Below are positions 2,068 to 28,102 of a stretch of 29,393 bases of DNA, piece by piece. Origin of the DNA: Bdellovibrionota bacterium (GTDB taxonomy: Bacteria; Bdellovibrionota_C; UBA2361; OMII01); NCBI GenBank assembly GCA_044356215.1, contig JBIKWQ010000043.1, positions 1 through 29,393 of the forward strand. The letters run 5' to 3'. The notes beneath the pieces were generated by a model that saw only the letters and a list, made by a program, of their open reading frames with translations, did no database searches and was not told the DNA's origin. Position 1 is the first letter of the stretch; each line of letters starts with the position of its first letter. The translations under genes and the position numbers were made by a program.

Positions 2068-3254
2068 AGGCTCCTTATAAGATCTCTAAGTTCGGAAAAA
2101 GGGAGGACTTCAACGGCGCCTAGTTTGTAGCGTCTCGGCGATTGGCATACGCAGAAATGAGGCACTTTTGGGTAGTCTTGCGCGAAACGTTTTAGATTGG
2201 TGACGTGTTTCTCTTCGGGGGCTGTAGAAGATTTTATCTCGATCGCCGCCAGTGGGCGTCCCGCTCCGCGTGAAACGATAAGATCTACCTCAGCATGACT
2301 ATTCGTTCTCCAGTGAGAGAACTTAAGATCGAGAGTCTCGTAGTCGTTAATTCGAAAGCACTCCTGAATTACACGGGCTTCGAACATCTTTCCGAAACGA
2401 GACGAGCTCTCAACCGTGTCTATCCCCAACTCTCCGCGTAGCGCAGAGGCCACACCATTATCAAAAAGAATGAGTTTCGGAGAGGTACGTAGCTGTTTTG
2501 TCCGGGACGCGTGCCATCCCGGTAATCTCCAAGCTAGCAAAGTATCCTCTAGGATATCGATGTACTCAGAGACTGTTTGAGAGCTAACCCCAGCGTATGC
2601 CGCAATAGTTGATGCGTTAATAATCTCCCCGTGGTACTGGCCCGCGACCTCTAAAAACTTCGCGAAAGCATCAACTTTTCTCACGAGAGCTTCCTGTTGA
2701 ATCTCTTCCTTGAGATACGTTGCTACATAGGACCGAAGGGAATCTTGCGGTCTTTCATTATCTATGATGATCCCTGGTAGACTGCCAATTTGGGCGTTTT
2801 CGGATGTGCTTTGGGGAAACTCTGACTGAAGTAAAGGATGTAATCGCAGAGTGATTGCTCTTCCGGCTAGAAGATTGGAGCCTAGGCGGCGTAGCTTCCG
2901 CGCGCTTGAACCCGATAGAAGGAAACGAACTCGACCTTGAAATCGTTCGTAGAGAGAATGGACCTCATCGAGTATAGCAGGGACTTTCTGAACTTCATCG
3001 ACAAAGACAAGGGCCGATTTAGCCTTTTGGAGATGACTTTCAACCTCACCTCGAAATAACTCAGGCCTCTTAAGGAACCGTTGATAAGTATCGTTCTGTA
3101 GAAGATCGTAGCGGAGGACATTCTCTCCAGAAGCTTCAAGTTTGTTGAGATATGCGGAGCAGAGCCGCGTTTTACCGACTCCGCGAGCTCCAAAGAGCAA
3201 AGCGGAAGTTTTTTTACCTAGAGATTTAGACAGTTTAAGAGATCTTAAAACCAT
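2064..3254 (-). CDS. AAA+ ATPase (AAA_14) with DUF4143 / PD-(D/E)XK C-terminus
   Basis: Walker A GARGVGKT, Walker B VFVDEVQ, SGSS..LAGRA, C-terminal EVDL...AIEIKS. Start placed at ATG 3254 (MVLR). Stop overlaps the galM start (ATGA). Confidence 0.9.
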   Translation of the reverse strand: MVLRSLKLSKSLGKKTSALLFGARGVGKTRLCSAYLNKLEASGENVLRYDLLQNDTYQRFLKRPELFRGEVESHLQKAKSALVFVDEVQKVPAILDEVHSLYERFQGRVRFLLSGSSARKLRRLGSNLLAGRAITLRLHPLLQSEFPQSTSENAQIGSLPGIIIDNERPQDSLRSYVATYLKEEIQQEALVRKVDAFAKFLEVAGQYHGEIINASTIAAYAGVSSQTVSEYIDILEDTLLAWRLPGWHASRTKQLRTSPKLILFDNGVASALRGELGIDTVESSSRFGKMFEARVIQECFRINDYETLDLKFSHWRTNSHAEVDLIVSRGAGRPLAAIEIKSSTAPEEKHVTNLKRFAQDYPKVPHFCVCQSPRRYKLGAVEVLPFSELRDLIRSL

Positions 3255-3285
3255 ACTTGAAAAATGTAATACGTTTTCCAAGTAT
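3253..3285. promoter_or_regulatory. Palindromic operator-like site overlapping the AAA_14 start codon
   Basis: ATACTTGAAAAA (3253-3264) N9 TTTTCCAAGTAT (3274-3285), 11/12 symmetric. Confidence 0.55.
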
Positions 3286-3398
3286 AGTAAAGAAATTTTT
3301 GTAAGTGTCTTTTATACAACTAAAGACTGAGCAGCTCATGAGTTTGATGCTCTGGAGTTTCTGGCCCCGCTCTCTGTGCATATCCCAAAAACCTACTT

Positions 3399-4850
3399 TT
3401 ATGGTTTCGACCTAGTCAGCATCTTTTGCACTACTTCTGGACGATACTTATTAAGAAGTAGAGACCACAAAATTGAAATACCTAAGCAACACCCGATTAA
3501 GGCTGGAGCTGTTGATACTAGCCCCTCCTTGGATGAGCAATCTCTGATCGTAAAGAAAATGATGTATCCAAAGATAATCGCGTCAATGAGCGACAAAACG
3601 AGAATGAAAAATCGTTCCTTCGATGAAGCGCCCAGAACTCTGTAATTTGTCAGTCCAGCTAATGCGACAAGGAGATATAAAAACACAGCAATAGTGCCGA
3701 ATGTAGTGGCTGAATATTCAAATGCCAACTTAGGGTCATTAATGCAGGCTAGCGCTAGTCCCATAACAACGGTGAGGAGATAACAAGCACTATTCCCACC
3801 GCGAGGAACCCCTGTGGTCGAGCAGGTTCGGGCGATTGATTGTGGCAAAACGCCGAAGCGCGCGAAGGCAAATAGATTTCGGGAGCCAGCTCCGAAGGAT
3901 GCCAACCCAGACGAAATCGTACTTATTAAGAGAACCAAAAAGAGAAAAAGTCGTCCAAAGTCACCAAATACAGACGGAGCCACCTTGTCAAAAAAAGGGC
4001 TTGGTAAGGCCGCTAAATCGGAAAGTGAAATGTCCGAAAGCGGTCCGCCTTTGTAGCACGCAGCCACAAGAGCAAAATAGCTCAAGAGAAACATACCCCC
4101 TGTGAGGACAGTAGAGAGCCAGACTGCCTTCACATACGATGACGCAGCGTTCTTAGTTTCCTCCGAAAAAGGTATGCCGGATTCAAATCCTACGAACATC
4201 AAGACGCCAAACAACGCCGCGGTTCCAAACGCACTAAAAGAGAAGTTCGCTGGATGAATCATGCTGTCAAGCATCTCTACACTGAGAGTGCTCTTGCTGA
4301 GCAGAGCTATGCCCATCGCGACAAATAAAAGCACCTCTCCGATACCAAAGGTAAAGAGCACCTTTGAGATGATGTGAACTTTCCTGCCAGAAAGTAAAAA
4401 AACTATCAGGCTCAATAGCTGTGAGAGCGCGACGACCTCCCAGAAGCTCAGAGTTCGCCCTAACCAAGCCTGAAAACCAAAGCCGATAAAACCAAAGATC
4501 GTGATTGACGTGATAAGTGGCTCGTAGAAAAAATCCAACAACCCTGCCGCAGTTCCCGCACACGGTCCGAAGGCCGGCGGGAGAATTGAAAAGTAACCCC
4601 CAGCTCCAGACCAACGCGCCTGTAACTTAGAATGCAAATATACTGAGGGAAATACACCAAGGCATGACATGACTATCGCCAAGCAAGCGGCCGTGTTTGC
4701 ACCGTTCAAAATAATTGCCGCTGTAAAGATAACCGCTACAGCAGGAGCAATATGCGCTACTGACTGAGCCATCTGCCCAAGGACGGCTATCGCATCCTTG
4801 GCCAGCGAATTGTTGCCATGTGGTGGGTTCATATCGTGGAACAGTCGCAC
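3399..4850 (-). CDS. APC-family amino acid permease
   Basis: About 12 hydrophobic segments, IAPA in TM1, AGGYF, FVGFESG..FSEE, SRNLFAFAR.G.LP. Alternative start at ATG 4832. Confidence 0.85.
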   Translation of the reverse strand: MRLFHDMNPPHGNNSLAKDAIAVLGQMAQSVAHIAPAVAVIFTAAIILNGANTAACLAIVMSCLGVFPSVYLHSKLQARWSGAGGYFSILPPAFGPCAGTAAGLLDFFYEPLITSITIFGFIGFGFQAWLGRTLSFWEVVALSQLLSLIVFLLSGRKVHIISKVLFTFGIGEVLLFVAMGIALLSKSTLSVEMLDSMIHPANFSFSAFGTAALFGVLMFVGFESGIPFSEETKNAASSYVKAVWLSTVLTGGMFLLSYFALVAACYKGGPLSDISLSDLAALPSPFFDKVAPSVFGDFGRLFLFLVLLISTISSGLASFGAGSRNLFAFARFGVLPQSIARTCSTTGVPRGGNSACYLLTVVMGLALACINDPKLAFEYSATTFGTIAVFLYLLVALAGLTNYRVLGASSKERFFILVLSLIDAIIFGYIIFFTIRDCSSKEGLVSTAPALIGCCLGISILWSLLLNKYRPEVVQKMLTRSKP

Positions 4851-5003
4851 AGTTGAAGAGGTTGTAACAGCGAAATTCGCATTTTGGGTCTAAGGAGAGT
4901 GCCCTGAGAAGAGCTAAGTTGAGAGAGGAGGCATCGTGCATCCAGACCTCCGATTATCCTCTCGGGATAATCCTAAAAAGGGCAGTGTATTATCCCTTGA
5001 TAC

Positions 5004-5032
5004 ACTTCGAATTATCGATTGAAATTCGAAGT
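5004..5032. promoter_or_regulatory. Palindromic operator-like site in front of an AAA_14 remnant
   Basis: Perfect ACTTCGAATT-N9-AATTCGAAGT. TTGATA lies just upstream (4997-5002). Confidence 0.5.
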
Positions 5033-5116
5033 CTACTGAGCCGTCTATGTAAACCGTTAATATCTAATAGCTTTTTATTGTTTGGTGCCCGCGGTACAGG
5101 GAAAAGTACGATTGTA
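5033..5116 (+). pseudogene. N-terminal remnant of an AAA_14/DUF4143 ATPase
   Basis: Translates (L)LSRLCKPLISNSFLLFGARGTGKSTIV, matching SALLFGARGVGKT of 2064-3254. The position equivalent to the start codon is CTA. The frame stops at 5170. Confidence 0.75.
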
Positions 5117-5217
5117 AGCCCGCTGCTCCACTCGAAATGGTACTTGACCCCGCAGCCTCGGGATAAGTAAAAATAATCAGCCAAATTCTTCCTCATTAAA
5201 AGTATCATAACTCCCCC

Positions 5218-6309
5218 ATGAAACCACTTCTTACTTCCTTACTTCTCCTCGCGACGAGTCTCTCAGCTCTAGCGGTAGCCCAAGAGCAGCCATCCACAGC
5301 TCCTAATATCAAGATCGGCGCGGTTCTTCCTTTAAGTGGTGCCGCGAGTAATTTCGGCACACTCGCCAGACGCGGAATTGAGCTCGCTGTGGAGGATTTA
5401 TCTCCAGCGGATCGCGCCAGGACCTCGGTTGTCTTTGAAGACGATGGATTATCAAATGCCCGCTCGGCGACCGTGGCGAACAAGTTGCTGAATGTTGATA
5501 AGGTCGACCTCTTACTCACTTGGTCCTCGGGTACTGGGATGACGGTGGCCGGTATCTCTGAGGCGAAGAAGGTTCCGCACCTCTCAATCGCCACCGATCC
5601 AGCGATCGGAAAAGGTAAGCGATATTCATTCACCTATTGGCCGATCGCCGAGGATGAGGCTAAGCGGCTCTACGATCACTTAGTCAAAGTTGGTGTGACC
5701 AAGGTCGCACTTATATATCAGATTCATAATGGGATCCTGGCGATTACCGATGCCTTTCGAGAATATGCCGCGCGCGAGGGAATTGTGAAGATAGCTGCGC
5801 TTGAGGAGGTGTCAGGAGACACAACTGATTTTAAGGGGGTGCTACAGAGGTTAAAGGCGAAAGGAGAGATACAGGGGCTGATACCAGTGTTCTTTCCAGG
5901 GCAACTCTCAGTGGTGCTAAAGCAGGCCCGGGGAGTAGGTATAAACGCGCCGTTTTTCGGGTTCGAGACCTTTGAGGATAAAGATGAGATAAAGGCAGCG
6001 GGTGGTCTTTTAAGCGGAGCTGTGTATGCAACAGGTGGGGATCCGCAGGCGGATTTTATCAAGCGTTATTTAGATAAGTATCCAGGAGAGTCTTACTACA
6101 CAGTCAATCAAGCCTACGACATTGTCAAACTCTTTGTAGCCGCGACCAAGGAGCATAAAGACCCAGAATCAGTGGTAAGCTTTCTTAAATCCGTGAAGGA
6201 CCTCGCAACATCATCAGGTTCGGTGAGTTATGTTGATGGAAATAGGTTTAGGCTGCCGACGGCTTTAAAGAGAATTAATGGAGCAGGGGAGGCGGAGGCT
6301 GTCGATTGA
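5218..6309 (+). CDS. ABC transporter substrate-binding protein (LivJ/branched-chain, periplasmic type I)
   Basis: Signal peptide, IKIGAVLPLSG.A..G...RRGIELA, VFEDD, TDFKGVL, AYDIV. No permease genes nearby. Confidence 0.9.
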   Translation: MKPLLTSLLLLATSLSALAVAQEQPSTAPNIKIGAVLPLSGAASNFGTLARRGIELAVEDLSPADRARTSVVFEDDGLSNARSATVANKLLNVDKVDLLLTWSSGTGMTVAGISEAKKVPHLSIATDPAIGKGKRYSFTYWPIAEDEAKRLYDHLVKVGVTKVALIYQIHNGILAITDAFREYAAREGIVKIAALEEVSGDTTDFKGVLQRLKAKGEIQGLIPVFFPGQLSVVLKQARGVGINAPFFGFETFEDKDEIKAAGGLLSGAVYATGGDPQADFIKRYLDKYPGESYYTVNQAYDIVKLFVAATKEHKDPESVVSFLKSVKDLATSSGSVSYVDGNRFRLPTALKRINGAGEAEAVD

Positions 6310-6311
6310 TC

Positions 6312-6472
6312 AGGGCGTCGTAGTTCTTTATCACCACAGAGGACGCAGAGGACGCAGAGAACGACAATTTTATTGGCCCTTATGGGTTTTTCTCTGTGTC
6401 CTCTGCGTCCTCTGTGGTAAAAAATATTTGGCTTATTATTCCATCAGCTTACTAAAAACACTGCGACGCCCT
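6312..6472 (+). mobile_element. MITE-like nested palindromic element, copy 2 (complete)
   Basis: Outer TIR AGGGCGTCGTAGT / ACTGCGACGCCCT (12/13). Inner arms 6333-6361 / 6390-6418 (28/29). Confidence 0.85.
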
Positions 6473-6557
6473 AAATTGTCCCTCTCCGGCTTGATTTGAG
6501 CGGTCGAAAAATCGACAATGAACGAGGGCGCTTGGCATCTACCTGATTTTTAGGTCT

Positions 6558-9475: not shown

Positions 9476-9617
9476 CTCTAGCTGCTCTAAGCACCTGATT
9501 ATACGTTTCTATCGCCAAAATCCGCCCTTTTTTCGGCGGATTGCAACCGATGATTTGCCTGGCAAAACAAATCAACTAAAATTATTGACTTTTTTTAATC
9601 ACTTTGCGCAATCACTT

Positions 9618-9646
9618 TTGACAGACTTACATCCTACTGTTTAAAT
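9618..9646 (+). promoter_or_regulatory. Sigma70-type promoter for ihfB
   Basis: TTGACA-17 nt-TTAAAT with a TG extension. Confidence 0.55.
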
Positions 9647-9652
9647 GATCAA

Positions 9653-9737
9653 GTGCCTGTAGTGTTCGGTGGTTAGGTCGTTTGGTGAGCTGCTTCAAAC
9701 TGAAGCGAGCTAGTCTAAGCGACATGAACGGAGGCAC
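9653..9737 (+). ncRNA. Structured 5' leader or small RNA upstream of ihfB (unassigned)
   Basis: Nested stems GTGCCT/AGGCAC, GTTC/GAAC, GTCGTTTGG/CTAAGCGAC, AGCT/AGCT, GCTTCA/TGAAGC. Begins at the predicted +1. Confidence 0.4.
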
Positions 9738-9788
9738 AGAGTTTTATTTAGCGAATTCATCCCAGTACCTTTTTGGGGGGTAAAGATA

Positions 9789-10097
9789 GTGAACAAATCG
9801 GAATTAATCGAAAAGTTAGCGCAGCGTTGTGGTATCAGCATTATTCAAGCTGAAGAGGTAGTTACTCTTATATATCGCAAGATGCGTGACACATTGGTTT
9901 CGGGCGGCCGTATAGAGATCCGCGGATTCGGCAGCTTCGTCGTAAAAGAGTACGGAGCCTATGAGGGTCGTAATCCTAAAACCGGTGAGAAGATCGCCGT
10001 TCCACCGAAAAAACTTCCTTTTTTCAAGGTAGGTAAGGAGCTTAAGGAGCGGATCGATAGCGAGGCAGCTAAGAGCGCTGGCGAGGGCGAGCGTTAG
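9789..10097 (+). CDS. ihfB: Integration host factor beta / HU-family DNA-binding protein
   Basis: MNKSELIE, RIEIRGFGSF, GRNPKTGE, PFFKVGKELKERI. Confidence 0.88.
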   Translation: MNKSELIEKLAQRCGISIIQAEEVVTLIYRKMRDTLVSGGRIEIRGFGSFVVKEYGAYEGRNPKTGEKIAVPPKKLPFFKVGKELKERIDSEAAKSAGEGER

Positions 10098-10105
10098 AAT
10101 AATTT

Positions 10106-10378
10106 ATGTCCAATTCTCCGAGAAATACGGGCGCGCCGCAGTATCGGCGCGTCCAAGTTAGTCGTGTAATTTCAAGTCGCTATGCAGGTGATTCAAGACC
10201 CGACTCATGGGATCTGCGCCAGGCAGGAATTGACACGGTCGAAGTCAGCGGAGGCGAGGTTCTAAAGCTCGCTAGTACCCCGATGCAGTCTCCTCCTAAA
10301 CCAGGTTGGGTCCTTATGCTCACTGGCGGTGATAAAGAGGGATACTCCTGGACGCTCTACGGGATGAGTAGGCGTTAA
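10106..10378 (+). CDS. Hypothetical protein (90 aa)
   Basis: ATG 8 nt after the ihfB stop, globular beta-rich composition. Confidence 0.65.
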   Translation: MSNSPRNTGAPQYRRVQVSRVISSRYAGDSRPDSWDLRQAGIDTVEVSGGEVLKLASTPMQSPPKPGWVLMLTGGDKEGYSWTLYGMSRR

Positions 10379-10568
10379 TTCACTTTAATTCATAAATAAC
10401 AGTGCTCGTTTAGGGGCCTTCTAGCATCCTATTATTCATGAGCGCGGCAAAATCGCTTGGAGCTACCTTCGGTCAGTAGGTATACTAAAGGGGTGCTCCG
10501 GAGTTTAACGCGCGCGGGCGTTAATGTGACGCCTTTAGGTTTTAATTGAGGTTAGGCAGGAGAATCAT

Positions 10569-10760
10569 ATGGACTCACGTCAAGGTCAAGAGAGCGGCGA
10601 AACTGTTACAGTTCAAACGACTATCGGAGATCTGATCGAAGCGATCACCGACGTAGCTATGCAGGCCGGAAAGACTGAAGAGGAGTGTTACCGCCTAGCT
10701 TCATTTACCATCGAGAAGCTTCTCCGAGAGAAGCGCCACAAAGACATCCTAGAAGCGTAG
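10569..10760 (+). CDS. Small hypothetical protein (63 aa)
   Basis: AGGAG RBS, candidate promoter TTGGAG-18-TATACT (10457-10486), followed by a hairpin. Confidence 0.7.
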   Translation: MDSRQGQESGETVTVQTTIGDLIEAITDVAMQAGKTEEECYRLASFTIEKLLREKRHKDILEA

Positions 10761-10761
10761 G

Positions 10762-10798
10762 AAGTCAGGGCATCCAGCCGGGATGCTTGCTTGATTTT
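10762..10798 (+). terminator. Probable terminator hairpin
   Basis: GCATCC/GGATGC core (10770-10786) with an extendable stem and a T-rich tail, directly after the stop. Confidence 0.45.
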
Positions 10799-10854
10799 CA
10801 GCACTCTGGCACTCTTTTACCTCATAATTATATCCCCTTAAGGTAAGAGAGAAG

Positions 10855-11859
10855 ATGGTTAAAGAAGCCCCAGTCATCGCGATCGTCGGAGCTACCGGTC
10901 TAGTAGGTAGCGAGATGTTGGTTATAACCGAGGAGCGCGGGATTCCGTGTTCTGAGATGCGTCTCTTAGCCTCCAAGGACTCAGTCGGAGAGGTTTATAA
11001 GTTTCATGATAAAGAGGTCGAGGTAGCGGAGCTGAAAGAGGATTCTTTTGATGGGGTTGATTTTGCGCTTTTTGGAACATCTGCCGAGCTGTCAGCTAAG
11101 TTCGCTCCTATAGCTGTGAAGGCTGGCGCGGTCGTGATCGATAACTCAAGCCATTTCCGCATGGATCCTCAGATTCCTCTAGTAGTTCCTGAGGTGAATC
11201 TTTCTGCAGTAACTAAGGACACAAAGATAATAGCCAACCCTAACTGCTCTACTATTCAGCTAGTTACTGTTTTGAACCTGATTCATGAGCTCGCGGGGCT
11301 AAAGCACGTTGTAGTCTCGACTTATCAATCCGTATCAGGAGCTGGTAAGAACGCGCTCGATGAGTTGTGGAGTCAGACGATCGCTATCTGTAATCAGCAG
11401 GAGATGACTCAAGAGGTATTTCAACATCAGATCGCATTTAACTGCATACCACAGATCGATCTCTTCCTTGAGGACGGATACACCAAAGAGGAGCACAAGA
11501 TTATTAAGGAGAGTAGGAAGATTCTGGGGATTCCGGATTTACGGATTACGGCTACGGCTGTGAGGGTGCCTGTTTTCTTCAGTCATGCGGAGAGTGTTTT
11601 TGTTGAGACCGAACGAGAGCTTTCACCCGATGATTTCGTAAAGGGACTATCTGCCAAATCTGGTATCGTTGCACGTGGAGCAATGGAGCAGTATCCGATG
11701 CAGATCGATATCGCCGGACAAGATGAGGTGTATGTTGGGCGTATTCGCAAAGATATATCTGTGGACCACGGATTATCGTTCTGGATAGTGGCGGACAACG
11801 TTCGTAAGGGTGCCGCTCTTAACGCTGTGCAGATAATGGAGCGGCTGCTATCGCGGTAA
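10855..11859 (+). CDS. asd: Aspartate-semialdehyde dehydrogenase
   Basis: VGATGLVG, DNSSHFRM, IANPNCST, STYQSVSGAG, RVPV, DNVRKGAALNAVQI. Confidence 0.96.
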   Translation: MVKEAPVIAIVGATGLVGSEMLVITEERGIPCSEMRLLASKDSVGEVYKFHDKEVEVAELKEDSFDGVDFALFGTSAELSAKFAPIAVKAGAVVIDNSSHFRMDPQIPLVVPEVNLSAVTKDTKIIANPNCSTIQLVTVLNLIHELAGLKHVVVSTYQSVSGAGKNALDELWSQTIAICNQQEMTQEVFQHQIAFNCIPQIDLFLEDGYTKEEHKIIKESRKILGIPDLRITATAVRVPVFFSHAESVFVETERELSPDDFVKGLSAKSGIVARGAMEQYPMQIDIAGQDEVYVGRIRKDISVDHGLSFWIVADNVRKGAALNAVQIMERLLSR

Positions 11860-18870: not shown

Positions 18871-19716
18871 ATGAAATGGTCAGGACGAAAACAGAGTGAT
18901 AACGTTATCGATCGCCGCGAGAGTTCCGGCGCTGGAATGTCAACGTCTCGTCGGGGCGCGGGTCCAAAGCTAGGGCTTGGGGGCGTCGTGGCGATTGGCT
19001 TAGTGGTGTACTTTTTAGGTGGTGACCCACGAATCGTCCTCTCCCTGTTACAAGGGCAGATGACTCAGCAGGTGGGGATGCCTAGTCAGGGGCAGATGCC
19101 TCGTTCAAATTTTGATTCGGATGACACTAAGGGGCTAGTTTCAGTTACCCTGGCCGATTTAGAGGATCGTTGGCAGAAGATATTTCAGAGCCTCGGTCGG
19201 AGCTATACAGAGACACCTCTAGTTCTCTTTCGAGGTGCCACAGATACCGCTTGCGGTCTCGGTCAACGAGCATCGGGGCCGTTTTATTGCCCGGCTGATA
19301 AGCGGGTGTATCTCGACTTAAGCTTTATGGATGATCTTCTAAAGCTTGGCGGCAAAGGGGACTTCTCTCTGGCGTATGTGGTAGCCCATGAGGTCGGGCA
19401 CCATGTGCAAACACTTCTTGATCCTCAACGGATGCGTGGCCGTAGTAATCAGAGCGATGCGATCGCTATTGAATTGCAAGCCGACTGTTACGCTGGTTTG
19501 TGGGCGCACTACGCTAATCAGGAGCGCGATTTCCTAGAGCCAGGGGATATCCAAGAGGGGTTGGCTACTGCAGCTGCGGTAGGGGACGATCACATTCAAC
19601 GCTCAGCCGGACAGGCTGTTTCACCAGAGTCATTTACCCACGGAACCTCGGAGCAGAGGCAGCAAGCTTTCATGCAGGGATTCCGCTCCGGAGATATTCG
19701 AGGCTGCCAGTTCTAG
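18871..19716 (+). CDS. ypfJ: Neutral zinc metallopeptidase (YpfJ-like)
   Basis: MKW.GR.QS.NV.DRR, GPFYCPAD, AHEVGHHVQ, ELQADCYAG, FTHGTSEQR. Confidence 0.92.
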   Translation: MKWSGRKQSDNVIDRRESSGAGMSTSRRGAGPKLGLGGVVAIGLVVYFLGGDPRIVLSLLQGQMTQQVGMPSQGQMPRSNFDSDDTKGLVSVTLADLEDRWQKIFQSLGRSYTETPLVLFRGATDTACGLGQRASGPFYCPADKRVYLDLSFMDDLLKLGGKGDFSLAYVVAHEVGHHVQTLLDPQRMRGRSNQSDAIAIELQADCYAGLWAHYANQERDFLEPGDIQEGLATAAAVGDDHIQRSAGQAVSPESFTHGTSEQRQQAFMQGFRSGDIRGCQF

Positions 19717-21437
19717 GATTGACTCGGTTGCTTAACCTGTGGCTCTCGCGGAAGAGCTTTGACGTGCCAGTTCCGATTTCCTAGTGCCATGAGCGCGAGA
19801 TCGAAATCTCTATCTGGTAACAATTCAAACGGAACCAGAAGAGCGAAACGATAAGCTTTTTCGTTCGGGGCTACGGTGACTGGTGCCGCGCCAGCAGGAA
19901 GAAGATCTCTGCCTCTCACAGATGGAAGGCATAGACGCCTATTCCAGCTCTCGGAACCCGTCCCGATGGCGAGAAGACATACGGAACGTGGAGTGACGAT
20001 CTGCTCCGCTTTAATCGATACGTCTCCCCTAATGAATATAAAGCTCCGATCCTGTGCGTATTGCTCAATGTTGATTATCAGATCTGCGCTTTGTTCCGGA
20101 AGAGTAAGATCTCGCTCAAGAAAACGCTTCAAATACGCTGTCGGATCTGGTGAGTAGATTCCCAATCGTGACGCTCTTTGAAGAACGTAATCTGTTACCT
20201 GTCTTGGTGGAAACTCAGCGAGGGTAATCGTTGGATCGAATCGATATGCAACCAGCTCGCGAGCGAGCTTGAGATTAAATGGAGTAACTGTTTTTGGAAT
20301 ATCGGAGTAACTTCGAAGCGCCAATGCTCCGGTGATTAAAAGAGCTGTCCCCCATACTATCCATCTGAGTTTACTCGCGGTGATAATCAACGCGGTGAAG
20401 ATCGCTGCCCATGCAGTTGTCGAGTATACCTGATAACGTGAGAGTAGGGCGTGCTCGATCCCCCCTTCAGAGAATCGCAAGAGCGCGGAAGAGCCACCCG
20501 CGCATACCGACAGGATGAATACGGCGAAAAGGGGAGGGTATCTCCATAGTCGAATGTAGAGCGAAATGGCTATCAAACAAGCGCCTAAAACACACGCCAC
20601 AATCGGGTCGGAGATATTAAAAGCGTTGCCGACGAAAGCGAGCGGATAAGAAAACAGGCCCTTTAGGGAACTCTCTTTGTCTAGAAAATCTCTGATGTCA
20701 GAACGGAGTAGTGAATTCGAGCCGATCGAATAAATTCGAATAAGCCCTAAAATTCCGGCACCAACGACGAGGCCCCAGGTGATCTTACTTCTCTTGAATT
20801 TCAAAATAGTGAATAAGCACACCAAGGCAGCGACGAATAAGCCGGCACCACCAAAGAAGGCCGCCGCCGCGCCGATTAACAGAGCACTTGCTATAGCTCC
20901 GCGTTCAAGAGCGATTAGTGATACAAGGGCCATTAACGGTAAGAATCCATGAATATAAGCGCTTGTGGCCCAGAGATAACTCCCCCAAACAGCGGGCTGA
21001 GTCAGCAAAATAAGGGTCGGGAGGTTTAGAAGGAGGCTAACTGCGAGAGTTACGCGAAGATAGCGCGTGAGCCAAAACACTAGAGTAAGAGAGACGAGGA
21101 TCGGAGATAGAGAGGCGACTACGGCTAAGAAGGAGAACGATACAGATCCGAATAGATAGTATGAGGTTAGAACCGCTAGTTTCAACAAGAGGGTTGGAGC
21201 CTCGTTGTATGAGGCAAATAGAAGCGATATATCTCTGTGTTCCAGCCAGTCAGCTAAGAATGTTAGGCAACTGTTGTAGTCATCGGCGAAGGGAAAAGGG
21301 TGGTGGAGTTTCCATGAGGTCAACAGCCAAAGAGAGGTCAAGAGTAACCATATTGATATTGCGATTAGCAACCAAATTCTTTGAGTTGTCTCTCGCTTTG
21401 ACGCGCATTTGAATTCGGCAAGTAGTCTCTGAATCAT
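19713..21437 (-). CDS. Polytopic membrane protein, possible GT-C-fold glycosyltransferase
   Basis: About 12 TM helices, PFADDY after TM1, SRY motif, soluble C-terminal domain. Confidence 0.6.
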   Translation of the reverse strand: MIQRLLAEFKCASKRETTQRIWLLIAISIWLLLTSLWLLTSWKLHHPFPFADDYNSCLTFLADWLEHRDISLLFASYNEAPTLLLKLAVLTSYYLFGSVSFSFLAVVASLSPILVSLTLVFWLTRYLRVTLAVSLLLNLPTLILLTQPAVWGSYLWATSAYIHGFLPLMALVSLIALERGAIASALLIGAAAAFFGGAGLFVAALVCLFTILKFKRSKITWGLVVGAGILGLIRIYSIGSNSLLRSDIRDFLDKESSLKGLFSYPLAFVGNAFNISDPIVACVLGACLIAISLYIRLWRYPPLFAVFILSVCAGGSSALLRFSEGGIEHALLSRYQVYSTTAWAAIFTALIITASKLRWIVWGTALLITGALALRSYSDIPKTVTPFNLKLARELVAYRFDPTITLAEFPPRQVTDYVLQRASRLGIYSPDPTAYLKRFLERDLTLPEQSADLIINIEQYAQDRSFIFIRGDVSIKAEQIVTPRSVCLLAIGTGSESWNRRLCLPSVRGRDLLPAGAAPVTVAPNEKAYRFALLVPFELLPDRDFDLALMALGNRNWHVKALPREPQVKQPSQS

Positions 21438-21502: not shown

Positions 21503-22081
21503 CTAAATTAAGGAGTGTAAGGCTCCCCACGCTTCTTGAAGATTTACATCTTTAAGACGTCTGCTCCGCCTTGGCGCAGACAAAACTCTCCTCTTCTGAT
21601 AACATAAGTTAGTTGAGCTGTGGATATAGGATTCGTAATGACGAAGCTCCAGTGCAAGCTGTTTTAAAAGATAGCAAGCAGATGCGATGTCGTTCTCGGT
21701 CCTGGGGGTAAACGAAGTCGGTAGCTTATGAGGCGTGTGCATACCAGGAGCGAGAGTTTCTCTAAAAAAGAATGGGGATCGTTGATACCTCTTGACGATA
21801 ATCCCAGAGCCAGAGTCCTCAAGCATTGCTGCAAACCCGACCAAGTGCAGAGCTGTTTCAGGTGCTACAGTGAGGATATACTGAGATGAGCCGTAAGCGG
21901 CATCGGGAAGCTTGTGACGTATGAACCCGTAATTCAGCGCAAGGTTTCCCGCCTCTCTTCGAATGTCGAGACCGAGACACCACATCTGTAGGTTGAAAAG
22001 TTCTTCAAAATCTCTGCCGAAATCGCCTGAGAACGACCATCTTTTAATCTTATCGTGTCCTTGCTTAAACAGTTCCACCAT
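21503..22081 (-). CDS. Hypothetical protein in the COG0523 operon
   Basis: Starts 24 nt after the GTPase stop. QMWC.G.DIRR..GN....YGF segment. Confidence 0.7.
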   Translation of the reverse strand: MVELFKQGHDKIKRWSFSGDFGRDFEELFNLQMWCLGLDIRREAGNLALNYGFIRHKLPDAAYGSSQYILTVAPETALHLVGFAAMLEDSGSGIIVKRYQRSPFFFRETLAPGMHTPHKLPTSFTPRTENDIASACYLLKQLALELRHYESYIHSSTNLCYQKRRVLSAPRRSRRLKDVNLQEAWGALHSLI

Positions 22082-22105
22082 ATCGTTTAGTCGCCTCGAG
22101 TTGGG

Positions 22106-23323
22106 CTACAAAGGATCCTCGTCCTGTAAATTCCACGGCGAAAATGGATCGGGATAAGATGTCCAAGCTAACTCTCCTTCAGCTAGCTCACTATCCGAAA
22201 GTAGGCACTGGTCAAGCATTCGTATCAGGGACTCTTTATTCATCTCGATCCCGATTAGAACTAGCTCCTGCTTGCCGTTAATAGGAGCTGCCCGCGAGCC
22301 ACCTGGAACGTCACTGTCTGTACGAGGTACCCAGAAACCTGCTGGCTCGGTTCGGCACGAGCCCCCAGACTGCGACCACGAGCCAGCGATTCGAGGCCTA
22401 GAGGCGAGCCAGAAGAATCCTTTTGATCGGATTACTCCGGGCCAGTCCCCTTTGATGCAATCAGCAAATCGAGCTGGATGAAACGGACGGTCGCGTCTGT
22501 AGACAAAACTTGAGATCCCATACTCCTCGGTCTCGGGAGTATGAGCTCCTGATAGCTCCTTTAACCATCCAGCGCTATGTGATGCCTTTTCGAAGTCAAA
22601 CAGTTTTGTGTTGAGGATCTCCCGTACGGGTATTTTGCCGAACTCGGTGCGTATGATCCGAGCTCCTGGATTAAGCTTCTTGATTATACCCTCTACAATG
22701 ATGAGATCTTCTGGCGCAATCAGGTCAGTTTTGTTGAGGAGGATAACGTTAGCGAACTCAACCTGATCTACTAGGAGATCAACTAGAGTCCGGTCATCCC
22801 CATCCTGTACTCCGAGGCCCAGGGCTAGCAGATCGTCCTGTGATTGTAAATGCTCAAGGAAATTAGAGGAATCAACCACTGTAACCATAGTGTCTAAGCG
22901 AGCCACAGCAGAGAGAGTATCCCCATGTTCGTCTGTATAAGCGAAGGTTGCTGCTACGGGCATCGGCTCACCAATGCCCGTTGATTCAATTAACAAGTAG
23001 TCGTATTTCTCGGCTTGAGCGAGCTCCGCAACCTGCTCGATCAGATCCTCACGTAAAGTACAGCAGATACAACCGTTTGAAAGCTCGACTAGCTTTTCCT
23101 GACTCCGGTCTATGCGAGCGTCGCCACGCTCTACCAACTGAGCATCGATGTTGACCTCGCTCATGTCATTCACTATCACCGCGACCTTAAGCCCCTCTCT
23201 GTTTCTGAGCGTATGATTAAGCAGAGTAGTCTTACCCGACCCAAGGAACCCGGAGAGAACCGTGACTGGAAGACGGGCGCGCCGTTTTGATTTAGATTGG
23301 GATTTATAAGAGGATGAATTCAT
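22106..23323 (-). CDS. zigA: COG0523 zinc metallochaperone GTPase (ZigA/YciC-like)
   Basis: [55 protein letters not shown], CobW_C domain. Confidence 0.9.
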
Positions 23324-23337
23324 AATGACCTTCTAGC

Positions 23338-23352
23338 TGCAACTGGGTTGCG
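23338..23352. promoter_or_regulatory. Zur-like operator 1
   Basis: TGCAACTGGGTTGCG, 14 nt upstream of the GTPase ATG, directly after the -10. Confidence 0.75.
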
Positions 23353-23354
23353 TT

Positions 23355-23383
23355 AAGGTAAGCGGACACAGATAAATAGTCAA
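23355..23383 (-). promoter_or_regulatory. Sigma70 promoter of the COG0523 operon
   Basis: Minus strand TTGACT-17 nt-TACCTT. Confidence 0.6.
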
Positions 23384-23492
23384 TAGGTTTCGCCGGGCTA
23401 GGGGCCAATGGTTCCAGGTGCATAGCGTTTGAGGTTTATGGTAGGATTGAAAAGTTGAAGGTTCGGTTGATTCGTATAAACAGTTGATAGCT

Positions 23493-23864
23493 ATGAGAAA
23501 CACACAGGCACGACAGTTGATTATCGAGTTTCTAGAAGGCTGCAGTCAGCCGACGTCAGCGAAAGAGATTGTAGCGCACGTTTCAACGACCCGCCGAGAT
23601 ATAAACAAGTCAACAGTATATCGCTTTATAAAAGCGCTTACAGACGATGGTAAGTTAGCTACGATTCAGATACCTGGTAAGGGCGCAGTATATGAGATGA
23701 GAAGCAAAGCGCCGCACTACCACTTTAGTTGCGAACAGTGTGAGAAAGTGATGTGCATGGGAAAGGAGAGTTCTCAGATTAAGAAGCTAGTTCCGAAGGG
23801 CTATTCTATATCTTCGGAGGATTTGGTGCTCTCCGGGTTGTGTCCTTCGTGCAGAGATTCGTAA
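23493..23864 (+). CDS. Fur-family regulator, probably Zur
   Basis: INKSTVYR, HYHFSCEQC, C-terminal GLCPSC. Divergent from the COG0523 GTPase. Confidence 0.88.
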   Translation: MRNTQARQLIIEFLEGCSQPTSAKEIVAHVSTTRRDINKSTVYRFIKALTDDGKLATIQIPGKGAVYEMRSKAPHYHFSCEQCEKVMCMGKESSQIKKLVPKGYSISSEDLVLSGLCPSCRDS

Positions 23865-23940
23865 CTACTCACAGGATTTTTTTGATCGTCGCAGTCATAG
23901 CATCGCTAAGTAGGCTATTTTAGCACTTTTTCTTTCTTGT

Positions 23941-24027
23941 CACCCCCTAGTCGGGGGTGCCTTTATCTGGTGAGTAGTTATTATCTCCACCCCGCTTTGC
24001 TCCGCAAAGCCGCCCCTTAATAGGGGC
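23941..24027. repeat. Cluster of three GC-rich hairpins (REP-like or terminator)
   Basis: CACCCCC/GGGGGTG, GCTTTGC/GCAAAGC and GCCCCT/AGGGGC between convergent genes. Confidence 0.5.
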
Positions 24028-24157
24028 TAACGTTATTGCGGCATAATTTGCTGAATGGTTACACAGATTCTAAGAGATGATCGGCAAAAGGTCGAGATTG
24101 CGGGGTTTTGCAACGTGTCTATAGCTGGCGGCTATCCCTTGTTTTATATGCTCTCTA

Positions 24158-26452
24158 CTAGAAATTCTCCCCTTCTTCGGGAATCAGATAATCATCATCT
24201 GTATATGGAGCGTCCTCGCTCTTAGCTTGGAAAATGTCGAGGGATTTACCTGGGCTTCGGTTTGAGGCATTTGAGATCTTTCCGGATGCTGACGTCTTCG
24301 CGGCAACGGCGGAGGCGCCGGCAGCAGCCGTGCTCTGTGTGGTAGCCGACCCGCTAGAGCCTCCAGTAGGACCACGCTTGGCACGTTTCTTAAGCGCTTT
24401 GAGCCCTTTGATTTTGGGCTTTCTATTATCGACTGAATTTTCTCTCTTCTTTCTTCGGCTAGTAGCGAGGCGAATACGTGAAGACCCGGTACGTTCGGAT
24501 GCCCGAAACTCAGAGATCCCATCGTACTCTTCTTCACTCAGAGCCTCGAGGACTCTAGTCGCGAGATCTAGTTGTCGCATGGCCGTGATTGAAGACGAGT
24601 CGGATCGCTTTGCTCTGATCGCATTCGCGACCACTCTATTTAGCCTATCTACTATTGATCCCCGCAAGCCAGCATCCTTTTGGCTCTTTAGTTCTTTTGT
24701 CATAGGCCGAATAGTCGCGGATCTAACACTGATTTTATCAGCTGGACGTTCCGAGCCTTTTATCGCTCTCGACTCTTTAAGTTGTGCATTATGGTATCGC
24801 CTACTAATGCCTGACTCCTCGGACTTTACAGATTCTCTTCTCTGAGGTGGGCTTTGCCGCGTGGGGATGGTATGCCGGTCTCTAGAGATCGGGGTGCTGC
24901 TAGCGATGTCAGACCTCCGAGTTGAGAGGATATCTACATTTTCGCGATTGGGTGCCTCCCTCCTGGGCTGATAGTTGACACTTCGTGAAGCGAGCTGCCC
25001 CTGTGGGTGGATTGATGCGCGTGTTCGGCCGTTGGTAAGGTCTGATGACTGCTGACCAGCTTGGAATTGTCTCCTGGAAGATTCAACTAAGCCCTGATTT
25101 ACGGTTCGACTTGAGGTCAAAGGAGGCTCAGGAGCCCTAGTACTAGCCCCTGTTAATCGCGCGGTGCTTCTAGAGCTAATGTCACTTTTTATCACGCGGC
25201 TTGAATGTTGAGAAGTGAGTGGCTGCGACTCTTTGAGGAGTCTTGTAGTGTCTTTTGTTAGTCTCTCGGAAGCCCATCCCATGAAGCGTTCCTGGCGTTG
25301 CGTGTTGGCTGAGGGTTTATGTTCGGTGATAGCTAACCTAGAGCTAGGCTTAACAGCGCCGTTTTGACGGATAGGATCGGATCTCTGTGTGTCAGCTCGA
25401 GCACTGATCGCCGGCGAGCCGACTGCATTTGTATTCGAGAAAGCAGATCGCTGGTTAGGGTACGTTGAGGTGTATAGTGGAGAGCTGTTTTTGGTTGCGA
25501 GAGATCTTGAAGTCTGTTCAGTTAACTTAGCGGCTTCAGAAGTGTTCCCTGGAGTGGGCTTGATTCGTCTTTGCGCTCTTTGTGCAGATGAAGGATCTCG
25601 TGCCGGTGCGGTGTTCGAGGGGATGTTGTGCAGGCTTAAAGCATCTGATCTTGTATCGGGTTGGTTTAAACGACTTCGTGGAGAGCTACTTTCGTTTGGG
25701 TAAGATCTTACAGCCTGTTCAGTAAACTTAGTAGCTTCAGAGGCGCTTCTTGGATTAGGGTCGATTCGTTTTGGCTCGCTTAGTGTAGCTGGAGTCTCTC
25801 TTGTAGCCGCGACTTGCGAGGGTATGCCGCTTAGGACTAACTGAGCAGATTGCGTAACTGTTTGTACTGATGGCGTCCGTAAAATACTCCCTGAGTCTGG
25901 CTGGTATGTAGATGCACTTAAAGTCCTGTCTCCCGCATAACTAATTGTCCTATCAGTAGGGCCGAAAGGACTGGATTGGGACTGGGAATTGCTATTTAGC
26001 CATTTGCGCTGTTCTGGTTCAGTAGACTTAGAGATTGAAACATCACTGCCCGATCTTAGTGAACGATCGACGCTGGCTCTAACTTCAATACCCCCTCTAT
26101 CCGCTTGGATCGGTGAGGTATATGGATATCGAGACTCCACCTTTTCTACTGATGAGCTCACAATCGGGCTGATGTGATGATTATCTCTCCTGACAGGCTC
26201 TGCGGCAACGCTAGCATCTGGGGATCGGGCAGTCTGAGTTGCCTCGTTTGTACCTCTCCTTCTCGATCCTGGAGAGGGAGGAACGCCTCCCGATGTCCCT
26301 TGTTCATCGTTAGATTTGGCCACCGTTTTGGGTGTGCAGCCAGGGCAACTACAAGCCTCGCCATGTTGAGCTTCAGTATTTTTCGTCGGACTTTTCTCCC
26401 GAGTGAACCGGAGAAGACTAAGTAGATTTAGGGTGTGTTCTCTAGGTGGCAT
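24158..26452 (-). CDS. 764-aa Ser/Arg/Thr-rich, probably disordered protein
   Basis: Long open frame, in-frame 201-bp internal duplication, N-terminal HGEACSCPGC, starts 19 nt after the upstream gene. Confidence 0.7.
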   Translation of the reverse strand: MPPREHTLNLLSLLRFTREKSPTKNTEAQHGEACSCPGCTPKTVAKSNDEQGTSGGVPPSPGSRRRGTNEATQTARSPDASVAAEPVRRDNHHISPIVSSSVEKVESRYPYTSPIQADRGGIEVRASVDRSLRSGSDVSISKSTEPEQRKWLNSNSQSQSSPFGPTDRTISYAGDRTLSASTYQPDSGSILRTPSVQTVTQSAQLVLSGIPSQVAATRETPATLSEPKRIDPNPRSASEATKFTEQAVRSYPNESSSPRSRLNQPDTRSDALSLHNIPSNTAPARDPSSAQRAQRRIKPTPGNTSEAAKLTEQTSRSLATKNSSPLYTSTYPNQRSAFSNTNAVGSPAISARADTQRSDPIRQNGAVKPSSRLAITEHKPSANTQRQERFMGWASERLTKDTTRLLKESQPLTSQHSSRVIKSDISSRSTARLTGASTRAPEPPLTSSRTVNQGLVESSRRQFQAGQQSSDLTNGRTRASIHPQGQLASRSVNYQPRREAPNRENVDILSTRRSDIASSTPISRDRHTIPTRQSPPQRRESVKSEESGISRRYHNAQLKESRAIKGSERPADKISVRSATIRPMTKELKSQKDAGLRGSIVDRLNRVVANAIRAKRSDSSSITAMRQLDLATRVLEALSEEEYDGISEFRASERTGSSRIRLATSRRKKRENSVDNRKPKIKGLKALKKRAKRGPTGGSSGSATTQSTAAAGASAVAAKTSASGKISNASNRSPGKSLDIFQAKSEDAPYTDDDYLIPEEGENF

Positions 26453-26471
26453 ATGGGTGATACCATCAATC

Positions 26472-27260
26472 CTAGCAAAGCTTTTTTAGGTTTTTTGCAA
26501 ATGCTTTAACGTCGACCGTACTTTCATCCAGAGGATCCACCAAATGTTTAGTGACAAGTTCGTTATCTACCATGTACTCCAATTCCCCTCCGAAGAATTG
26601 GGCCCATTCGATCAGACTACTCTTTGTAGCTCCCTCAGAAGTGGCGACTGCCTCTATTATTCCCTTTAGCCTCGCCACCGTCCAGGCTGCCTCTTCTGGG
26701 CTGGACTTTAGGGCCGCTTGGTAAATCTCGTGAAGCATCGCCCTATATGGAGCTGCAGCAAGAATCCACAGCCGCAGAGCCGAATGAGGTTTAAGCAGTT
26801 CTTTCCGTTGCTCCGTTATTAGATCTTTAAGAGCGGCAGTGACTTCACTGCTGTCCAAAACGCTTAATGTGGCCCCAAACATGGGTGCCAATTGTTCGAT
26901 GGTCAGTTTTGATCCATCTCTAAATTCGCCTAAAATCCTCCGAAAACTAGCTGACTCTTGTTCCCCCATGATTCTTCCCCCTGCGAGTATGGCCCCAGCA
27001 AAAGTCTTGACGGAAACGTTACGACTGGCAGCCTCCCTTGCCCCGCCATTTAAAAGAGCCGCTACCTGATCAGCCGTTGCCTCTATGACAGAAGAACCGC
27101 TCTGGTGTCCCATCAGATGGAGCGGCTCGCCTGGCTCTCTATCAGGAAAAACTAATTTACCGCGCTTTATCAGAATTAAATCTCGTGCCGTGGTCGAGTT
27201 GACGATAGCTGCATGACATTCTGTAGGTAAAACGTTTTCAACTCTTGTTGAGGTCCCCAT
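26472..27260 (-). CDS. Hypothetical protein (262 aa)
   Basis: GAGGAG RBS 8 nt before ATG 27260. Globular helical composition. Confidence 0.75.
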   Translation of the reverse strand: MGTSTRVENVLPTECHAAIVNSTTARDLILIKRGKLVFPDREPGEPLHLMGHQSGSSVIEATADQVAALLNGGAREAASRNVSVKTFAGAILAGGRIMGEQESASFRRILGEFRDGSKLTIEQLAPMFGATLSVLDSSEVTAALKDLITEQRKELLKPHSALRLWILAAAPYRAMLHEIYQAALKSSPEEAAWTVARLKGIIEAVATSEGATKSSLIEWAQFFGGELEYMVDNELVTKHLVDPLDESTVDVKAFAKNLKKLC

Positions 27261-27339
27261 GATACTACTCCTCATTGAATGGCTGTTGAGCCTGTCAGAT
27301 TTAGTGTTGGTCAAAACAATAGCGGAAGAATGCACTTAG

Positions 27340-27354
27340 TGCAACTAGGTTGCG
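27340..27354. promoter_or_regulatory. Zur-like operator 2
   Basis: TGCAACTAGGTTGCG, 14/15 identical to operator 1, with shared nTAAG flank and an equivalently placed -10 (TAACTT, minus strand). Confidence 0.7.
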
Positions 27355-27556
27355 ATAAGTTATTGTGGAAGTTTATTAGAAGAGGCATTCCAAGTATGTA
27401 CTACCTGGTACATGGTAGAGTTTAAGTATAATGATTTGAGTCAGTTCCGTCCGTTAATTTGCCCCTGTGAAAATACCGACAACAACACCCTCAGTTCTTG
27501 TCTCGCCTCTCCCGAGATAGTTACCGACAATGCAGGAACGTGGTAGAATGCTAGAG

Positions 27557-28102
27557 ATGAGGGAGAAAGTTACACCAGAGCGGTTGCGAATATTCATGCG
27601 GGAGATCTCCAGACGTACCCAGGGGGAGGGATGTGTGTATTTTACAGGGGGCTCAACTGCTCTCTTGTTAGGCCTCCGTGAGCAAACAATCGATGTTGAT
27701 ATAAAAGTAGATCCTGAGCCTAGGGGTATCTTTGAAGCCATTGCCAATCTTAAGAATGAACTCAGCCTTAACGTTGAGCTTGCGTCACCTGATGATTTCA
27801 TTCCCGCTCCGCCCGCGTGGCAGGACCTGGCGACGCCGATCGAGAAGATAGGGAGCATCTCATTTTTTCATTATGATTTATGCATGCAAGCCTTAGCGAA
27901 AATAGAGCGTGGATTCAGTCAGGATTTAGCCGACGCACGCGGGCTTGTTGAGAAAAAATTTATAAGCATAGAAAATTTAAAGAAAAGATTCGCCCAGATT
28001 GAGGGCCGATTTATTCGATATCCTGTTATCAACCCCGATGAATTCAAAGCAAAGCTCGAGGCTTTTATTTCCTCTTTTAGCGAGGAGCTCCATGACCAGT
28101 AA
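27557..28102 (+). CDS. DUF6036-like nucleotidyltransferase
   Basis: YFTGGST..LLG.R..TIDVDI (GG..DxD NTase motif), KIERG...DL.D. Start placed at ATG 27557. Confidence 0.75.
   Translation: MREKVTPERLRIFMREISRRTQGEGCVYFTGGSTALLLGLREQTIDVDIKVDPEPRGIFEAIANLKNELSLNVELASPDDFIPAPPAWQDLATPIEKIGSISFFHYDLCMQALAKIERGFSQDLADARGLVEKKFISIENLKKRFAQIEGRFIRYPVINPDEFKAKLEAFISSFSEELHDQ

Follow-up and report, generated by a model that had tools for sequence, protein, structure and literature searches.

Which regulator reads a palindrome that recurs in front of two minus-strand operons of a freshwater Bdellovibrionota bacterium, and does it place proteins of no described family under the control of metal supply? 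The question is raised by a stretch of 29,393 nucleotides (nt) of contig JBIKWQ010000043.1 (assembly GCA_044356215.1), referred to here as the window. One copy of the palindrome precedes the gene for a ZigA-like COG0523 GTPase (zigA) and a gene for a protein of 192 amino acids (aa), p192; the other precedes an orphan operon encoding the proteins p262 and p764. Our analysis indicates that the two boxes are probably operators of a Zur-type Fur-family repressor, most likely the product of the regulator gene that lies between them, which would control both zigA–p192 and p262–p764. We infer the box binder, the sensed metal and every protein function from the DNA and its comparison with relatives, which are designated below by G numbers (G000 being the present genome), with L numbers for loci and C numbers for contigs.

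Box 1 (TGCAACTGGGTTGCG) occupies positions 23338–23352 and is a candidate operator over the transcription start region of zigA, and box 2 (TGCAACTAGGTTGCG), at positions 27340–27354, lies 80 nt upstream of the p262 start codon and is a candidate operator for p262 and p764. Both are 15-nt palindromes. The sequence-only reading of this DNA had singled out two 20-mers around them, about 4 kb apart, each following a –10 element of a minus-strand operon: a COG0523 gene plus a 192-aa unknown downstream of box 1, and a 262-aa unknown plus a 764-aa disordered protein downstream of box 2, with a Fur-family gene in between. All of these elements are found where it placed them, and the two 20-mers are identical at 18/20 positions. 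The Zur consensus of Desulfovibrio that it named is likewise in print, as a predicted 17-bp palindrome, ATGCAACNNNGTTGCAT (PMC545781, Table 5), and the cited work reports it upstream of znuABC-zur in two genomes. Compared with ATGCAACNNNGTTGCAT, box 1, written with its flanking bases as (c)TGCAACtggGTTGCG(t), agrees at 12 of the 14 specified bases, and box 2, (g)TGCAACtagGTTGCG(a), at 11 of the 14; the inner TGCAAC-N3-GTTGC is exact in both.

The boxes are rare in the window and in the genome. Allowing at most one mismatch to TGCAACNNNGTTGC, a scan of the window returned four matches, namely the two sites counted on both strands, against an expectation of 0.32, and none of 100 window shuffles gave four or more. 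Across the whole assembly (3.24 Mb, 131 contigs), exact TGCAAC-N3-GTTGC sites number five. Four of these fit YGCAACNNNGTTGCR, by comparison with none for a reversed control pattern; the fifth (C44:6545) falls within a gene for an RlmI-like methyltransferase and probably arose by chance. Two of the four YGCAACNNNGTTGCR sites flank the Fur-family gene within 4 kb, and the other two are found on contig C59. A preference for YNR in the central three bases was considered as a rule and dropped, as the box beside the G051 regulator has GCA.

The candidate zigA promoter (23355–23383, minus strand) combines a –35 element TTGACT (23383–23378), a 17-nt spacer and a –10 element TACCTT (23360–23355), and box 2 follows a –10-like hexamer TAACTT (27357–27362, minus strand); in both cases, a TAnnnT hexamer ends 2 nt upstream of the box. 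A simple sigma-70 consensus scan with a threshold of 9 of 12 listed a promoter at neither box. Alignment of 12 zigA promoters from relatives revealed the exact box in the same place in 11 of them, the remaining one (G077) having 1-mismatch boxes. All of the 12 promoters except that of L055 also have a TTGAC[A/T/G] element 25–26 nt upstream of the box. Because the spacing between hexamer and box is fixed in the zigA promoters, the box covers the region just downstream of the –10 element, which is, judged by this predicted geometry, the classical position for repression by occlusion.

The regulator gene between the boxes (23493–23864, plus strand) converges on p764 and encodes 123 aa from its ATG, although the open reading frame (ORF) opens at TTG 23484. 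Its product, here termed type A, matches the Fur family over residues 4–111 (PF01475, E value 1.7e-17), and its closest solved relative is Zur/FurB of M. tuberculosis (E value 3.3e-8). In an alignment of 15 sequences, H75, H77, C80, C83, C117 and C120 are invariant and C88 nearly so; the two CxxC pairs C80/C83 and C117/C120 constitute the structural Cys4 site. Alignment to M. tuberculosis Zur (chain 2o03_A) reveals that the HxH motif is kept, whereas the positions that we take to be the sensing-site residues D62 and C76 are replaced by Ala and Arg, respectively. The subfamily-specific C88 and the invariant E68 could serve as substitutes for the missing sensing ligands.

Among 90 other genomes of the order, 12 have an orthologue of the type A regulator (43–74% identity). 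An exact GCAAC-N3-GTTGC box is found at 12 of the 13 type A loci (at least 43% identity), the thirteenth, in G077, having two 1-mismatch boxes; by comparison, no exact box was found near more distant Fur-family genes (0/14 loci). In ten congeners with a type A orthologue, 22 of the 28 exact sites listed share the regulator's own contig in what are fragmented assemblies, which argues that the regulon is small and largely local. A search with a single peptide pattern derived from the regulator alignment retrieved Bdellovibrionota and mostly Chloroflexota relatives, and no Desulfovibrio protein. Taken together, the rarity, placement and conservation of the boxes support that they are a real, conserved operator of a Zur-type regulon, putative as to binding.

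Three types of Fur-family regulator are distinguished in the genus, assigned by identity, length and score with sequences inspected for a subset. The present genome has only two Fur-family genes, the second being of type B (131 aa, HHHHHFHC motif) in an operon with a TonB-dependent receptor (contig C16, L003, 1–1950). The C16 locus carries no box; instead, an inverted repeat of its own, CAATAGC-N7-GCTATTG, lies at the promoter beside a TTGACC hexamer and is probably a separate, iron-type operator. Type C is Zur-like and has an HHHHHLVC motif. All but one of the 16 genomes with zigA carry type A and/or type C, the exception (G047, 84% complete) having a gene fragment, whereas zigA is found in none of the 11 type-B-only genomes. 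Seven zigA genomes (G046, G047, G048, G050, G056, G060 and G061) have no intact type A gene and keep perfect boxes; six of these have type C (not G047), two keep the box in front of p262, and G046 holds a type A remnant. Another regulator can therefore use the box. The regulator of G022, whose gene adjoins the box and a zrgA operon, groups with type C with 100/100 support. Types A and C thus both appear to use the operator, and in the present genome type A is the sole candidate of the two.

The gene directly behind box 1, zigA (22106–23323, minus strand), encodes a COG0523 GTPase metallochaperone of 405 aa with a cobW G-domain (PF02492, E value 1.9e-54), a CobW_C domain (PF07683, E value 1.8e-21) and the CxCC motif in the form GCICC. 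Of the NCBIfam models, ZigA fits this protein far better than any other, with 550 bits versus 140 for CobW; since its score on NF038288 (550.6 bits) is below the NCBI equivalog cut-off of 600, we refer to it as ZigA-like rather than ZigA. Orthologues with 68–79% identity are present in 15 other genomes of the family, bringing zigA to 16 of 36 genomes.

The second gene of this operon, p192 (21503–22081, minus strand), has no match in Pfam or NCBIfam, and its homologues form about 45 clusters, every one named 'hypothetical'. Within the phylum, p192 is encoded by 18 of 124 genomes. It is located directly downstream of a zigA orthologue in 14 of 19 loci, with an exact box before zigA in 12 of these 14; in two genomes of another family it is preceded by a CbiA/ParA-like NTPase and a rhodanese instead. 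By gene order, p192 is a conserved operon partner of zigA. Residues W34, C35, G37, D39, R98, P103, Y149, E150 and W185 are invariant among 40 sequences. The AlphaFold2 (AF2) model of p192 is confident (predicted local distance difference test score (pLDDT) 89, predicted template modelling score 0.88) and yields no clear match in the PDB (Foldseek best E value 0.13; VIA wide search best Z 6.6), a result that for a predicted model points to neither a new nor a different fold; the ESM Atlas gave no usable match for p192 or p262. A p192-like domain was also sought in the long COG0523 paralogues of relatives, and none of seven proteins matched the p192 profile.

The orphan operon begins with p262 (26472–27260, minus strand). 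Its mechanical ORF is 287 aa long; the homologues begin at ATG 27260, 8–12 nt downstream of an AGGAG motif, which gives a protein of 262 aa. Relatives are few, comprising 19 clusters among 1.84 billion representatives. Within the order, a single-sequence search retrieved one relative (G065), and further ones were recovered by synteny and profile search, giving a family present in 9 of 124 phylum genomes, eight in this genus and one (G009) in another family of the order. The exact box is located upstream of the p262-family gene in all eight genus genomes, mostly within about 120 nt. The proposed check on conservation of the box comes out in favor of the orphan operon: the box accompanies it even where its order and orientation with respect to zigA and the regulator differ from genome to genome, which argues against chance.

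Residues C15, H16, H48, G51, H52, S160, R163 and E190 are invariant in 21 p262 sequences with a mean column identity of 28%. Among these, C15, H16, H48 and H52 look like a metal site, suggesting that p262 is a metal-binding protein. In addition, some members carry H-x-C-G-P-x-C-x-x-H tails, and the G009 member opens with a His/Cys-rich stretch. In G009, the p262-like gene, a homologue of zigA (49% identity) and a NicO/DsbD_2-like gene belong to one operon, an arrangement that, on the evidence of gene context, is an independent link of the p262 family to COG0523. The AF2 model of p262 (pLDDT 72) contains helical repeats of the alpha-solenoid kind at residues 60–232. Its fold matches are generic and HEAT/ARM-like: the best Foldseek hit in the PDB has an E value of 0.25, and nearly all VIA rows are HEAT/ARM/TOG proteins, with a best Z of 9.7, which for repeats is below the informative level.

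The second gene, p764 (24158–26452, minus strand), follows p262 after 19 nt. It has no Pfam or NCBIfam family, and the protein is rich in Ser (16%) and Arg (11%), with a pI of 10.5 and only three Cys, all within residues 35–40. A gene for a disordered protein of 589–818 aa follows p262 in all eight genus genomes (7/7 others), and the C-termini of these counterparts match p764 (tblastn E values 1e-9 to 5e-26); a search with the C-terminal region returned four clusters. Every aligned p764 orthologue retains an N-terminal His/Cys cluster, an F/Y-x-GWA-[ED]-R motif, a basic patch, a C-terminal helix and the motif KSLDIFQAK-DD. A complex prediction for p262 and residues 585–764 of p764 scored 0.00, and nothing is drawn from it.

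Two side observations concern p262 loci in relatives. In G056 (L161, 3643–4272 and 7625–8587), the box has an Hsp20-family gene on its upstream side, and the disordered-protein gene is followed by a CAAX-protease-like (Rce1-like) gene. In G009 (L166, 415–470), repeated TTGCAA words, including TGCAAATTACTTGCA, are located upstream of the zigA-like/NicO-like/p262-like operon, and this region may be an AT-rich variant of the box.

The three proteins had been proposed to form a single low-zinc module, and their distributions speak otherwise. In the genus, p192 is present in 11 genomes and p262 in eight, but both occur together in only two (G000 and G056) of the 17 holding either. As p192 and p262/p764 rarely co-occur, they do not form one obligate three-protein module; their largely complementary distributions suggest that they may be alternatives to each other. 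Our literature search, which did not extend to subscription journals, found no description of p192, p262 or p764.

The other genes behind the box provide the context from which the sensed metal may be judged. On contig C59 of the present genome (L001, 2497–3546), one box precedes a 186-aa N-terminal fragment of a decarboxylase dependent on pyridoxal phosphate (PLP), and the other precedes an 89-aa FmdB-like protein, in which the first CxxC is lost, and a Cys-rich ORF. The proteins of these small genes are 98–99% identical to those of G058, where their counterparts precede a COG0523–WD40 operon, versus about 70% identity for ZigA of the two genomes; this difference suggests that the genes are what remains of a transfer or rearrangement in the recent past. 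Genes that have the box in front of them in relatives are two further COG0523 paralogues, one of them followed by a WD40 protein, as well as a ZrgA-family protein with an ATP-binding cassette (ABC) system (G022), a TonB-dependent receptor (G013) and an operon of PLP-dependent enzymes. In G062, G058 and G077, the gene for a NicO/DsbD_2-like membrane protein comes after that of the regulator. More distantly, Fur-family genes with the same box were found in Clostridiales, Sphingomonadaceae, Zobellia and Anaerolineales records, with CbiMQO, TauE, MerC-like and ArsP_2 genes as neighbours. Published work reports that A. baumannii induces zigA when zinc is scarce (PMC11834433), that ZrgA plays a part in acquiring zinc (PMC9817125) and that Zur represses when zinc-bound (PMC6103462). 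Gene context of this kind points to zinc as the sensed metal.

As a side observation on the box-linked enzymes of relatives, the box-controlled operons at L052 (G029, 1405–6509) and L055 (G022, 59–2808 and 9560–11062) encode a class-V aminotransferase and a CbiA/ParA-like NTPase, together with Orn/DAP/Arg-type PLP decarboxylases and a PALP–rhodanese fusion. These gene sets could constitute a pathway for a small metal-binding molecule.

Several of our observations weigh against a zinc-responsive regulon under the type A regulator. The targets that the sequence-only reading expected of a genome scan with the box (znuABC, ribosomal-protein and folE2-type genes) were not found: in the whole genome, the box is absent both from the single ZnuA-family transporter and from the upstream regions of any classical zinc-independent paralogue. 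That transporter (contig C45, L005, 833–3107) is divergent from a DtxR/MntR-family regulator and may be a manganese or dual-metal system. Furthermore, the type A regulator keeps two of the four positions that we take to be the sensing site of M. tuberculosis Zur, the COG0523 protein stays under the ZigA cut-off, box 2 has no recognisable –35 element, and seven zigA genomes keep their boxes without an intact type A gene. The NicO-like neighbour in relatives fits nickel or cobalt too, and the neighbours of the distant Fur-family genes are not zinc-specific. Some of these points would be accounted for if the same repressor–operator mechanism sensed a metal other than zinc, such as cobalt or nickel, and the COG0523 and orphan proteins served that metal. 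COG0523 does include cobalt and iron chaperones, the canonical sensing positions are half kept, the NicO/DsbD_2-like gene follows zigA in G009 as well as the regulator in three genomes, and a CbiMQO transporter lies next to one of the distant Fur-family genes that have the same box. Nevertheless, we regard a non-zinc metal as quite unlikely, given that the COG0523 protein scores far better on ZigA than on CobW, that relatives have the box at several COG0523 paralogues and at a ZrgA-family gene for zinc uptake, and that the same box is reported as predicted at znuABC-zur in Desulfovibrio (PMC545781).

The identity of the binder and the role of the orphan operon call for the same weighing. If the boxes here were bound by the C16 Fur paralogue or by a non-Fur factor, the local regulator gene would be a target or a bystander, and the persistence of box–zigA and box–p262 in congeners without intact type A would follow. 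A 7-1-7 palindrome is, however, the usual Fur-family site, the present genome offers only two Fur-family genes, and the paralogue on C16 has a repeat of its own at a boxless locus and belongs to a type that never accompanies zigA by itself; moreover, type C is found in six of the seven congeners lacking type A, and its relative in G022 adjoins the box and the zrgA operon. A binder of this kind therefore seems very improbable to us. As for the claim that both operons stand under the local Zur, the tie of a conserved box to Zur-like Fur regulators and to zigA is upheld, while the local gene is not the sole possible binder. The orphan operon, in turn, could be controlled by the box and yet encode products unrelated to metal, for example a structural or stress pair forming a fast-evolving accessory cassette on a starvation-responsive promoter. 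The low complexity, basic character and few Cys or His of p764 agree with such a cassette, as does the rapid evolution of p262 and p764 (16–45% identity among congeners), and Zur regulons elsewhere are reported to include genes not obviously metal-related (PMC8248653). This appears unlikely in view of the Cys/His residues of p262 that are invariant across 21 sequences, the extra His/Cys tails of some members, the N-terminal His/Cys cluster in every aligned p764 orthologue and the operon of a p262-like gene with a zigA homologue in another family (G009).

Control of both operons by a Zur-type repressor, the interpretation that we favor, suggests the following model. A dimer of the repressor loaded with metal, presumably zinc, would bind the 7-1-7 palindrome TGCAACY-N-RGTTGCR, which starts 2 nt after the –10 element and would cover the transcription start, thereby excluding RNA polymerase. 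When the metal is low, the repressor would leave, and zigA and p192 as well as p262 and p764 would be transcribed. ZigA would act as a COG0523 GTPase metallochaperone with p192 as its client or cofactor, and p262 would bind metal and use its HEAT/ARM-like body as a protein-binding platform. The protein p764, encoded right after p262, presumably acts together with p262, perhaps by handing metal on or allocating it. A bolder extension, which we put forward tentatively and consider rather doubtful, is that p262 founds a new family of Cys/His3 metal-binding alpha-solenoids and, together with its obligate disordered partner p764 and as an alternative to p192, cooperates with ZigA in capturing or re-allocating zinc during starvation. 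If so, p262/p764 would add to the COG0523 system an accessory layer not seen before, and the complementary distribution of p192 and p262/p764 would reflect two interchangeable partners or client sets of ZigA.

Further features surround these operons. A dispersed repeat of about 200 bp (23862–24073), which contains a terminator-like hairpin at 23941–23959, is situated between the gene of the regulator and the p764 end. A blastn search with the repeat returned 65 rows, one of which is the query, on about 50 contigs of the genome; five copies are near full length, with 84–89% identity. The repeat is absent from contigs of a strain diverging by 2–5% in two lake runs (joint 23862>24073), and it is possibly similar to a miniature inverted-repeat transposable element. 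Near-identical DNA occurs in lake-water runs, and contigs of four lake DNA runs display the same gene order. Elsewhere in the window, positions 18871–21437 encode a YpfJ-type putative zinc metallopeptidase (PF04228, E value 6e-89) and a 574-aa multi-pass membrane protein without a family, and a DUF6036 nucleotidyltransferase-like gene (27530–28102) is divergent from box 2, 176 nt away.

COG0523 metallochaperones are widespread, and their partners and clients are mostly unknown; the present locus offers p192, p262 and p764 as candidates, which a common conserved operator and the layout of the operons link to zigA. Of these leads, the Cys/His signature of p262 lends itself most readily to a test. 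Our analysis further traces into Bdellovibrionota a Zur box type that had been predicted for Desulfovibrio, and it associates two distinct Zur-like regulator types with one box in one genus, which makes this lineage a natural system for studying regulator replacement on a conserved operator.

Several known systems are close to this one. In B. subtilis, the COG0523 GTPase YciC/ZagA is induced in zinc scarcity under Zur, and to our knowledge, with no sequence search made there, no counterpart of p192 lies downstream in this system or in the Zur–ZigA system of A. baumannii; both differ from the present system in operator sequence and regulator subfamily. The A. baumannii system likewise pairs Zur with a COG0523 GTPase reported to be induced in zinc scarcity (PMC11834433), and it is the ZigA model to which the COG0523 protein here is closest. 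The predicted Desulfovibrio Zur_D regulon (Rodionov et al. 2004, PMC545781) has the same operator consensus, and the likeness is at the level of the operator: the box reported there precedes znuABC-zur, whereas here it precedes zigA–p192 and the orphan operon and the ZnuA-family transporter is boxless. By comparison with His/Cys-tailed metallochaperones and HEAT/ARM adaptors, p262 pairs Cys/His positions, with tails in some members, with a predicted alpha-solenoid, although it has no sequence relationship to either family and its fold matches are generic. The Vibrio Zur regulon, as described for zrgABCDE (PMC9817125), is echoed in G022, in which a ZrgA-family gene with an ABC system is divergent from a Zur-like gene and the box lies between them. 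The present genome is distinct from Vibrio in having no box-linked zrgA and in that its accessory proteins p192, p262 and p764 belong to no described family. In this regard, the reported control of genes of the Vibrio VSP-II island by Zur (PMC8248653) provides a precedent for unexpected accessory genes in a Zur regulon.

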